From assembly GCA_036172245.1 (NCBI GenBank), contig JAYWIR010000003.1, positions 5,146,001 through 5,210,000 of the forward strand: a stretch of DNA of 64,000 bases, given 5' to 3'. The notes under the pieces are model-generated. The model worked only from the letters and a program-made list of their open reading frames with translations. It did no database searches and was not told where the DNA came from. This stretch comes from Raillietiella orientalis. Taxonomy: Eukaryota. Positions within the stretch are counted from its first letter, which is position 1, and each line of letters opens with the position of its first letter. Shown here one piece after another: positions 1,824 to 17,375 of the stretch. A program made the position numbers and the translations under genes.

Positions 1824-4021
1824 CTACGATGAATCTGTGGGATCTGGAAAGCGCCTGAACTTTTCGTGCAGGAAGCCGCTGACCTGCAACACGGAAAACG
1901 CGAATCGTCTTCCTCGCAATCGCTGCTGCGATTTCACCTCTGGCTTGTCCCTGTGCGTGTCGACGGCATCCACCTTCAGAGAGATGCACTCCAGGTCGCA
2001 GGCGTAGCTGCCGACCGTCAGCTTGATGACCGTGTGCAAGGGTATGCGGATGTAGGGCAGCTCGCTCGTGTTCTTCTCCATGAAGTAGCCCAGCAGGCAG
2101 CGCAGCACGGCCTGGTGAGAGATGATGAGGACGTTGTGCTGGCGCTCCAGCTCCATGATGATGGGCTCCAGGCGGGACACCAGGTCCTCGTAGGACTCCC
2201 CGCGCGGGTAGCGGTAGTGGTACTTGTCTTGGTCGCGGTTGATGAAGTCCTGAGGGTAGCGTTTCTGGATCTCCTCGTACGTCATTTCCTCGCACACTCC
2301 CTGCGGGCGGCGGAGCGGGGCGGTTAGAAGCGGGGATGAAGAGAGCGAGCGAGCGGGCGGGAGAAGAGGCACTCACTGCGTCGATCTCGTTGAGCGACTT
2401 GAGCCTCTCGTGGGGGGCGTTGATGAACCGGGCCGTCTCGATGGTCCTCTTCAGCCACGAGGTCCAGATGCGCAGGTTGGGAATGTTCTGTCCGTTGATG
2501 TATTCTCCCAGCTTCCGCGAGTACAAGAGGCCTCGTTCCGTCAGGCTGGAGTCGCCGCCGATGCAGCCCTGGCAGTTGAGCAGGCTCTCGCCGTGCTGCG
2601 CATGCCACGAGGGGGGAGAGAAAGAGCAGGAGCAGGTCAAGCGACGGTCGCTCGCTCGCTCTTACCCGCGTAAAGTAGATGTTGCGCGGCTCGATGTGCG
2701 TGTTCATCAGGTAGTAGACGATCCTGGCCACGATGTTGCTGTCGTGGCGACCGATGATGAGCTTCTTGCCTGCAAGAAGCGCGCGCAATGGGGTCGCCCG
2801 CCGAACGGCCGTGACGAGGCTCACCCGCGTTGAAGATCTTGATGTAGCTGAGGTGGGGCTCGACCTTGTCATCGAGCGTCTCGTACGACTCCTCGTAGTG
2901 CCGGATGCGGTTCTGGAAGTCTTCGACCGCGTCGTCAGCATCTCTGCCCTGGTAGTCGGGCCTAGTTCCCAGCTTGACTTCCTGGAAAGAGAGAGAGAGA
3001 GCCTGTAAAAGAGGACCTTTCCCGAAGGATGAAACCGACAGTCGCGGGCTCGGAGCGCGCTCTTGGCGCGGACTGGAGGGACGGCAAGGCCTGCGCGTTC
3101 TTTCTTTCCCGCGGATGGAGCGAGCCACCCCGCCCGCGTCAGTTGCCGCGAGCCGCAGCCGCCCTTCTGCATCCCCGGTAGGTCTCCATGAGCCTGGGTC
3201 TCGATGCCCAACGCCTGCGTGCTGCTTCCCGTAGGCGTGCGTGCAGCGCCACGTCCCTCTAGCTCGCGCGGGGACGGCGGCACGGCAGGGCGTGAAGCTT
3301 CGAGACGCGCGCGTCGGTGCGGCCCGAGCCTCACGGCGCGCGTGCGGGCGCGGAAGCGTGAGGAAGACGCGCTTCAGGCAGCGCGGAGAGCAACTCCGAA
3401 CGGGACGGTCAGAGCTGGAGCGCGCGTGCACCCGGGACGGGACGCGCCTCCTCACCCTGATGGTCGCATCCAGCATTTCCGGATCGTCGCAGATGGATTC
3501 GATGAAGAACAGCTGGAAGTGCATCTCCTCCACGACCTTCTTGTAGATCATGTCGCGCCGCTCGACGGTAGAGTTGGTGGCGTCGTACAGCTGCAGAAAG
3601 ATCCCTTCCCCAATGCTGAAAAAGGGAGGACCCACTCACGGCTACTCCCTCGTTCTCCAGCAGCCAGTCGCAAGCATCCTTCAGAGCCACCATGGCTATT
3701 TTCGCGCGCAGCTCCAGAGCGTCTTTGTTCTTGCAGTTGAAAAATTCGTGGTTCCTGAACTCTTGGGGGGTCAACTGACGCCTGTAGTCTCCCACGTTGA
3801 ACACTGACGATGGAGATTTCAAGGGTTTGGGGTGAGGGAACTATTTTGTTTTCTTCTCAGAAACCTTTAGCTGAGATGCCGATCCAGTTGAGATACCTCG
3901 CTAATTTACGGGAGATGTACGTCTTCCCTCTGCCTGGAAGGCCAACCATAGCGACGAGATGAGGCACGTACACGCTGTGGTCGACTTCTTCCTCTGCGCT
4001 GTACCCGCTGCCGCTCCGCAT
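1824..4021 (-). CDS. PFKFB: 6-phosphofructo-2-kinase/fructose-2,6-bisphosphatase, copy A. Exons on the minus strand: 4021-3865, 3803-3640, 3590-3456, 2981-2825, 2769-2666, 2595-2377, 2300-1938, 1883-1824. About 452 aa if started at ATG 4021; further 5' exons are possible.
   Basis: All seven introns are GT-AG and phase-consistent (1359 nt spliced). The translation has the P-loop [53 protein letters not shown], the histidine-phosphatase motif [37 protein letters not shown] and ISHQAV. Confidence 0.95.
1942..2943. repeat. ~1.0 kb direct repeat, copy 1 (pairs with 15336-16337)
   Basis: Matches 15336-16337 at a constant offset of 13394, including three introns. The ORF-track translations over the two regions are identical. 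Confidence 0.95.
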
Positions 4022-15162: not shown

Positions 15163-17375
15163 TCAGCACTCTTCGGAGCTGTCCGGACAGCTGGAGAACC
15201 GCCTGAACTTCTCGTGTAGGTAGCCATCGACCTACAAGCAACAGAGCCGGTGAAAGAAGATAAATAGAAGAAAATACGAAAGAAGATAAATACGACGACG
15301 GATGTGGAGCGCAAAGGTAGCTCCTACTCACCTCCGGCTTGTCCCTGTGCGTGTCGACGGCATCCACCTTCAGAGAGATGCACTCCAGGTCGCAGGCGTA
15401 GCTGCCGACCGTCAGCTTGATGACCGTGTGCAAGGGTATGCGGATGTAGGGCAGCTCGCTCGTGTTCTTCTCCATGAAGTAGCCCAGCAGGCAGCGCAGC
15501 ACGGCCTGGTGAGAGATGATGAGGACGTTGTGCTGGCGCTCCAGCTCCATGATGATGGGCTCCAGGCGGGACACCAGGTCCTCGTAGGACTCCCCGCGCG
15601 GGTAGCGGTAGTGGTACTTGTCTTGGTCGCGGTTGATGAAGTCCTGAGGGTAGCGTTTCTGGATCTCCTCGTACGTCATTTCCTCGCACACTCCCTGCGG
15701 GCGGCGGAGCGGGGCGGTTAGAAGCGGGGATGAAGAGAGCGAGCGAGCGGGCGGGAGAAGAGGCACTCACTGCGTCGATCTCGTTGAGCGACTTGAGCCT
15801 CTCGTGGGGGGCGTTGATGAACCGGGCCGTCTCGATGGTCCTCTTCAGCCACGAGGTCCAGATGCGCAGGTTGGGAATGTTCTGTCCGTTGATGTATTCT
15901 CCCAGCTTCCGCGAGTACAAGAGGCCTCGTTCCGTCAGGCTGGAGTCGCCGCCGATGCAGCCCTGGCAGTTGAGCAGGCTCTCGCCGTGCTGCGCATGCC
16001 ACGAGGGGGGAGAGAAAGAGCAGGAGCAGGTCAAGCGACGGTCGCTCGCTCGCTCTTACCCGCGTAAAGTAGATGTTGCGCGGCTCGATGTGCGTGTTCA
16101 TCAGGTAGTAGACGATCCTGGCCACGATGTTGCTGTCGTGGCGACCGATGATGAGCTTCTTGCCTGCAAGAAGCGCGCGCAATGGGGTCGCCCGCCGAAC
16201 GGCCGTGACGAGGCTCACCCGCGTTGAAGATCTTGATGTAGCTGAGGTGGGGCTCGACCTTGTCATCGAGCGTCTCGTACGACTCCTCGTAGTGCCGGAT
16301 GCGGTTCTGGAAGTCTTCGACCGCGTCGTCAGCATCTTTTCCTTGGTAGTCGGGGCTGCTGACCTTGATCTCCTGCGGAGGTGAGAAAAGTTGTCGTGTG
16401 GAGGGACGAGGAGGGGAGGGAATGCCAGTCGAGGAGTGCTGGCAGGGGGGGAGGACGAGAGGAGGACGGAAGGATGGACAAAGGAGAACGAGAACTGCCT
16501 CTCGCGCGTAGCTGGATGCCCTTCAGCGGGAGCCGCCACCATCTTCTCGGAGACGGGAGAGTTGGCGCGCGCCATAGTCGGGCATGCAGGGAGCCTGCTG
16601 CGCGCGGGAACGAAGTTCGGCCTTATGCTTCCTTGTCCTTCATTACAGAGAAGGTCTTGATAGTAGGTGCAAAAAAAGGGGCAATAGGGAGAGTGGTGGG
16701 GTCGATCCTCCCGGATCTCTCACCCGGATGGTGGCGTCGATGGTCTCCGGGTCGTCACAGATGGATTCAATGAAGAACAGCTGGAAGTGCATCTCCTCGA
16801 CAACTTTCCTGAAGATCATGTTGCGCCGCTCGACAGTAGAGTTGGTGGCATCGTACAGCTGAAAGAAGAGGGCGCAGTCGCCAGCGGAGGAGACAGGAGG
16901 GAGAGGCAGAAAGAGAGAGAGAAGCATTAACTTACTCCCCTCCCCCCTCACCAGTCCTCTGCGCCGCCGTCGCGCGAGCGAGCGCCCCCTTCGCTTCTCG
17001 GGCGGAGAAAGGGAGAACTCACGGCCACTCCTCGGGACTCTTGAAGCCAGCCGCAGGCGTCTTCCAGGGCGATCATCGCGATGCGGGTGCGCAGCTCCTG
17101 AGCGTCTTTGTTCTTACAGCTGAAAAATTCGTGGCTTTTGAACTCTTGTTGCGTCAGCCGACGCCTATAGTCTCCGACGTTAAACACTGGCAGCAGGCAT
17201 TACGAGGGCCACGGGGAAGTCTCCCCTCTCCACCCCGCCTTCCTACCTTTGGCGGAAATGCCGATCCAGTTGAGGTACCGTGCCAGTTTGCGGGATATAT
17301 ACGTTTTGCCCCGAGCCGGGAGTCCGACCATGGCGATGAGGTGGGGCACGTACACGCCCTGGTCGATCCGCCCGC
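15163..17375 (-). CDS. PFKFB: 6-phosphofructo-2-kinase/fructose-2,6-bisphosphatase, copy B. Exons on the minus strand: 17375-17247, 17186-17023, 16858-16724, 16372-16219, 16163-16060, 15989-15771, 15694-15332, 15231-15163. The start exon lies upstream of 17375 and is not resolved.
   Basis: Same intron positions and phases as copy A. It has the canonical P-loop [25 protein letters not shown] and ISHQAV. The last exon [22 protein letters not shown] is homologous to copy A's [19 protein letters not shown]. Confidence 0.95.
15336..16337. repeat. ~1.0 kb direct repeat, copy 2 (pairs with 1942-2943)
   Basis: As for copy 1. The first mismatches are at 1941/15335 and 2944/16338. Confidence 0.95.

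Follow-up and report, generated by a model that had tools for sequence, protein, structure and literature searches.

Results

The window, i.e. the whole 64-kb stretch of DNA that was analysed, contains two PFKFB genes, A and B, on the minus strand and an intervening gene on the plus strand (Table 1). PFKFB is the enzyme that determines the level of the sugar signal fructose-2,6-bisphosphate. Gene A has eight exons, an open frame and its catalytic residues, and several of its introns match joints in the RNA of a relative. Gene B is likewise intact, with eight exons, and a B-type RNA contig of the relative joins B exon 3, the tract described below and B exon 8 at the predicted splice sites. Both products match Pfam PF01591 (6PF2K) above the cut-off and carry the histidine phosphatase domain PF00300, with R239, H240, E309 and H374 (the RHG motif, the Glu and the second His) present in both, and the histidine-phosphatase part has PDB matches at E 1e-55. 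The P-loop is canonical in B and has one Ala-to-Gly change in A. By these domains and motifs, A and B are predicted to be PFKFB bifunctional enzymes. A Pfam search of 364 long frames of the window, in which short exons are easily missed, returned no family at the cut-off except the PFKFB domains, and an alternative last exon of the other homologue type was not found near A or B.

Table 1 Features of the locus, with positions in the window
Feature	Position	Strand	Details
PFKFB gene A	1824..4021	-	exons 4021-3865, 3803-3640, 3590-3456, 2981-2825, 2769-2666, 2595-2377, 2300-1938, 1883-1824
PFKFB gene B	15163..17375	-	exons 17375-17247, 17186-17023, 16858-16724, 16372-16219, 16163-16060, 15989-15771, 15694-15332, 15231-15163
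Likely first coding exon of B	22005..22083	-	inferred; ATG, phase-1 donor fitting the acceptor at 17375
Candidate first coding exon of A	5582..5700	-	tentative; weak likeness by eye to the first exon of B
Tract copy in gene A	1942..2943	-	third base of codon 165 to about codon 432-433; introns 4-6
Tract copy in gene B	15336..16337	-	identical to the gene A copy
Exon 6 patch	2421..2533	-	17 listed differences from the B transcript of the relative
A-specific P-loop change, Ala to Gly	3932..3934	-	Ala in all 101 homologues with a residue there (103 aligned), also in B and in paralogue C
A-specific Ser to Thr and inserted Arg by a conserved Lys	2961..2966	-	about 6 codons outside the 5' tract edge
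B-only RRxS motif in the C-terminal tail	15193..15204	-	possible phosphorylation site; the Ser is a Pro in A
Intervening gene	8517..10143	+	at least 4 exons: about 8517-8594, 9337-9426, 9513-9734, 10020-10143

A and B are identical over 268 residues; 29 alignment columns of the kinase core differ, and so do the tails. At the Ser-to-Thr site of A, 102 of the 103 homologues have Ser, and the Arg insertion next to it occurs in none of the 103. The RRxS motif of B was also considered as a conserved regulatory site, which was unsupported, the motif having no counterpart in arthropod homologues; among the 60 tails listed it was seen in vertebrate PFKFB2-type proteins only, 3-5 residues further on. 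In a tree of the kinase part, A and B are sisters (support 97/88), with a branch of 0.22 for A compared to 0.025 for B, and relative-rate tests were significant with one of five outgroups only (p 0.012 to 0.77). We infer that A is the more derived kinase of the two. The two enzymes could plausibly differ in kinetics, because mammalian PFKFB, as described in the accessible parts of two papers, forms dimers via its kinase domains and is regulated by phosphorylation of its ends (PMC13446353; PMC6131595).

The two tract copies do not differ at any of 1002 positions, the three introns (55, 70 and 76 nt, 201 bases in all) included, and the next base on either side is a mismatch, so that the base identity proposed in an earlier sequence-only reading was reproduced exactly. 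The upper 95 % bound on divergence within the tract is 0.3 %. The copies lie in direct orientation, in minus-strand genes, at an offset of 13,394 bp. In a self-BLAST of the window the identical pair was recovered together with two weaker PFKFB exon matches (71 and 85 %); one unrelated inverted repeat of 118 bp was also seen. All 267 codons within the tract encode identical residues in A and B, and the lone synonymous change counted with these codons, at position 1941, actually lies just outside the tract. At the rate of difference found outside, the probability that all 801 coding bases agree would be about 1e-83.

The tract contains the whole bisphosphatase domain and also about 67 residues of the kinase domain, approximately its final third. 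Exon 4 belongs to the kinase domain, since positions 149-197 of the 223 of the 6PF2K model fall on window positions 2820-2966; it corresponds to residues 171-220 of PDB chain 1bif, and exon 7 to residues 330-450. The title of the earlier reading, which confined the homogenisation to the bisphosphatase half, is thus too narrow. The kinase residues that both copies have in common through the tract include the invariant R177 and Y181, which we take to have a sugar-binding role. At its 5' end the tract begins 38 nt inside exon 4, immediately after a one-codon indel and beside the 474/351-nt intron; at its 3' end it stops 4 nt short of the donor site of the last intron, which is divergent, and continuous homology stops there too. 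The edges do not match the domain border, the first of them being well within the kinase domain, and are placed where homology breaks off.

Outside the tract (174 codons) A and B have diverged considerably, with pS 0.65, dS about 1.5 and pN 0.12. Their outer introns, all GT-AG, measure 61/60, 49/164, 474/351 and 54/100 nt in A/B. Introns 1, 3 and 7 align no better than shuffled sequences (78, 43 and 138 of 200 shuffles, respectively, reach the score), and intron 2 is borderline (8 of 200). The differing exons and non-aligning introns that had been noted around the tract were accordingly found again, and dS along the gene, which was to be checked, is not uniform. A narrow divergent peak with homogenised flanking introns was not found, the outer introns being unalignable. 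A stepwise retreat of the tract edge is only suggested, the synonymous divergence of exon 3 compared to exons 1-2 giving p 0.11. Three simple explanations were rejected: purifying selection alone, by the identical introns and synonymous sites; a recent duplication of the whole gene, by the dS outside the tract; and a mis-join of divergent haplotypes, by the lack of homology between the two loci beyond the PFKFB exons.

The tract is also distinct in GC3, which is 0.91 (238/261) within it compared to 0.73 (130/177) outside it in A (p 1e-6) and 0.77 (131/171) outside it in B (p 4e-5). The equivalent regions of the unlinked paralogue C show no contrast (0.56 vs 0.50, p 0.25), and the intervening gene, with GC3 0.82, is below the tract (p 0.006). 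The logit shifts in GC3 of eight chaperonin control genes ranged from -0.28 to +0.70, compared to 1.32 for A and 1.15 for B; one of the eight shows +0.16. One minus-strand gene with a mis-oriented piece, the C7 hits and several pieces that were weak or rich in stops were left out of the control set. The controls have GC3 of about 0.3, lie in AT-richer DNA than the PFKFB locus, and show a small pooled 3' rise from 0.29 to 0.34. At fourfold sites the GC contrast is significant for A only (B: 0.91 vs 0.82, p 0.12). The GC of the tract introns, 0.64-0.71 compared to 0.43-0.70 outside, is not clearly above that of intron 3 of A (0.70).

The RNA of the relative comes from one metatranscriptome run, matched at 85 % likeness; the relative is about 5 % diverged, and 40 of 72 differences were listed. 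An A-type 5' contig has 16 differences in 325 nt on exons 1-2, where A and B differ from each other at 71 of 291 sites, and an A-type 3' piece is also present. Both gene types are thus found in the relative, and therefore the duplication predates the split from it. In the B-type contig, 42 of 841 nt (a length of which about 40 nt lie just outside the tract) depart from a sequence on which A and B agree, which makes it likely that the tracts of A and B were last homogenised after the split. The copies were thus either made identical after it, or one was overwritten in the assembly. That the paralogues are closer to one another than either is to its orthologue holds for the species of the window, from one genome plus the B tract of the relative. 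No A copy of the tract was seen in the relative at 85 % likeness, a level at which a very divergent copy would escape.

The differences from the relative are in excess in exon 6 (19/220 vs 23/621, p 0.006, for a region chosen after the fact). The patch within it (Table 1) includes two residues, common to A and B, that look derived: Glu and Ala occupy these sites in the relative and likewise in paralogue C and many homologues. At 20 listed synonymous differences the relative is more GC-rich in 10 and the window in 2, so its tract appears to be GC-rich too. Close relatives with both genes were not found: the best protein identity was 75 % among 120 listed of 2332 matches, a protein search with exon 6 reached 67 % at best, metagenome loci reached at most 75 % among the best 80 of 184, and an exact DNA pattern search gave 0 matches.

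Elsewhere in the genome (210 Mb, 491 contigs) there is a third paralogue, C, which is intact, has the same intron positions and is without the catalytic histidine. A, B and C cluster apart from the other homologues in the tree, with long branches that make the grouping unsure. From its best protein matches and the type of C-terminal tail the source is probably an arthropod, but the tree, in which the genes sit on a long branch, does not place them. The genome also contains four decayed copies of the tract (L020-L023). These were considered as fossils of an old tract of A and rejected as such: two are traceable to B, one is without an informative flank, and L020 is too decayed. Read by eye, L020 (69 %) is mixed.

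The product of the intervening gene, which is single-copy in the assembly, has a Cys-rich stretch, a hydrophobic stretch and a Pro-rich tail. Neither Pfam nor Atlas gave a family assignment; it may resemble WBP1/VOPP1. A search of its separate short exons with PF11669 gave no match, and the control search also matched nothing. With a crossover between the two tracts, 13,394 bp would be lost, this gene among them, and B would be left with the short tail of A. The deletion and chimeric enzyme envisaged in the earlier reading are thus geometrically possible; the chimera would be merely B with the tail of A, and no such B/A product is present in the assembly.

Discussion

We consider the tract very likely to be a real feature. 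The process that probably produced it, mosaic concerted evolution, is already known. The explanation that we favour, with a probability of about 0.7, is that repeated non-allelic gene conversion keeps the tract identical where the DNA of A and B is still continuously alignable. Introns 1-3 and 7 would have diverged first, isolating exons of 60-164 bp which would be too short to pair and would so escape from conversion, and the short introns 4-6 would have stayed inside one convertible block, in which GC-biased repair may have raised GC3. The accessible parts of published work (10.1101/135152; PMC3924837; PMC3924832) describe conversion tracts a few hundred bases long, a GC bias, and the escape of sequences from conversion as they diverge. 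Two isoenzymes would result, sharing the bisphosphatase and the C-terminal part of the kinase and differing in the N-terminal kinase part and the tail. An old duplication followed by recent interlocus conversion, as proposed from the letters alone, is supported by the GC3 contrast and by a relative in which both genes occur and the tract is 5 % different. The accompanying idea of a shared phosphatase module on different kinases goes too far: about a third of the kinase domain is identical as well, and the edges fall on breaks in homology and not on the domain border.

It is possible, although unlikely, that selection holds the 5' edge, the kinase function of A having changed and conversions that erase the changes being purged; such selection can coexist with repeated conversion. 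The P-loop Gly and the insertion beside the Lys are both at near-invariant sites, the latter close to the edge, the branch of A in the kinase-part tree is the longer one, and pN/dS puts A under purifying selection and not decay. However, the relative-rate tests reach significance with one of five outgroups only, the divergence is broad, extending over exons 1-3 and 8 and each of the four outer introns with no narrow peak, and the breaks in homology alone explain the edges. A single recent event, in which 1 kb of one gene was written over its long-diverged counterpart (B over A, or the other way round) without prolonged exchange beforehand, would account for the completeness of the identity and for a tract that is B-like by the B transcript of the relative and by the two decayed B-derived copies. 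We regard it as very improbable, as it requires the copies to pair despite about 20 % divergence and introns that do not align, and the conversion rate falls with divergence, according to the accessible part of 10.1101/135152, and as the raised GC3 points to long exposure.

An artefact of assembly or polishing would also give zero differences in 1002 bp, and the sole sequencing run found was the metatranscriptome of the relative, none being from the same species. In its strong form, in which one copy was overwritten by the other, we find this explanation extremely improbable. The contig of 7.4 Mb and the absence of N in the window make it likely that long reads spanned the 1-kb repeat, and reads cannot mis-map over about 20 % divergence and unalignable introns. 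Furthermore, both edges are in frame and inside exons, raised GC3 is not produced by an artefact, and another repeat of the window, 96 % identical, retains its differences. The weak form, in which a few real differences were erased by polishing, is rather unlikely and would leave the biology unchanged.

A more far-reaching reading is a system of three members, which we consider quite improbable. B would be the canonical enzyme and A a retuned kinase with its P-loop and Lys-loop changes protected by selection, the rest of A co-evolving with B for heterodimers. Paralogue C would be a catalytically dead regulatory pseudo-enzyme, and conversion would act as a module-locking device. If this were true, the balance of kinase and phosphatase would be set by the mix of paralogues.

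The A/B pair provides a natural experiment for mapping what tunes the kinase:phosphatase ratio. Use of the tract in an analysis leads to a wrong age, orthology or read mapping for these genes. In the literature searched, with most subscription papers outside its scope, we saw no description of PFKFB paralogues that undergo gene conversion, nor of PFKFB paralogues in arthropods.

As in the animal PFKFB1-4 (1k6m, 5htk, 1bif, 2axn; accessible part of PMC13446353), A and B combine kinase and histidine-phosphatase domains, catalytic motifs and isoform-specific ends. The process has parallels in other genes, which are compared here as far as the available portions of the papers describe them. The paired leukocyte receptors, for which the term 'merohomogenization' is used (PMC3210942), likewise have one part of the protein homogenised while another stays different. 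A functional reason, a common fast-evolving ligand and opposite signals, has been argued for them, whereas the PFKFB tract crosses a domain border. In the red/green opsins (PMC3924837) conversion also occurs between tandem paralogues and divergence is kept at possibly functional residues, but as a narrow exon peak with homogenised introns, whereas the PFKFB pair has diverged everywhere outside one block. The closest likeness is to DDX19A/B and TUBG1/2 (PMC2720389), which are also direct tandem pairs of an old duplication with consecutive exons and introns homogenised, raised GC3 in the converted part and no clear match to domain borders; in DDX19 the homogenised exons 8-12 form the 3' half and the other exons are divergent. 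Many mammalian species were available there, compared to one genome and the partial RNA of one relative here. The PFKFB pair differs from these genes in its complete identity and tiny introns and in encoding a bifunctional metabolic enzyme.

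Paralogue C and degraded copies of the tract

The third PFKFB gene, C, is not linked to the tandem genes A and B. Its frame is open and its introns are at positions matching those of A and B. In the phosphatase domain, however, Arg-His is replaced by Ala-Asp and the Glu is also missing, while in the kinase the Thr of the DATN motif is replaced by Phe. Neither the conserved Lys nor the THR tail motif is present in C. C is likely to be a pseudo-enzyme whose gene stays intact.

Partial and decayed copies of the 1002-bp tract shared by A and B were found at four loci (L020 to L023), all on contigs other than that of the window.

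Features in the window and at other loci of the same assembly
Feature	Location	Strand	Description
Single-copy gene between A and B	window 8517-10143	+	Cys-rich stretch and hydrophobic stretch; no family assigned
Inverted repeat, 118 bp	window 36347-36464 and 37085-37202		arms 96% identical; 620-bp AT-rich spacer
PFKFB paralogue C	L024:2748-5185 (G000:C28 about 1895250-1897690)		third paralogue
Decayed tract copy	L020:2348-2799		without introns
Decayed tract copy	L021:2595-2837		exon 6-7 junction apparently spanned
Decayed tract copy	L022:2477-3264		without introns; 3' UTR of B present
Decayed tract copy	L023:2330-4029		end of last intron of B retained, with about 1 kb of other DNA

Surroundings of the tandem genes

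Positions 1-28000 of the window form a GC-rich island (58-66% over most of its length), compared to 36-53% in the remainder, and GC3 is 0.73-0.91 in the island genes compared to approximately 0.3 in chaperonin genes elsewhere. One chaperonin gene, L026 (G000:C4:1818921-1820390), has no introns across its entire matched length; the others are split. By eye only, the gene between A and B looks WBP1/VOPP1-like.

On the minus strand, 1500-1750 may hold an alternative last exon of A: an open frame of some 80 codons follows an acceptor near position 1751. Upstream of the kinase exons of A, positions 4644-4796 match an RNA contig of the relative, which is diverged by about 5%, and are perhaps a 5' UTR or first exon. 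Together with its spacer, the inverted repeat may represent a small non-autonomous transposon.
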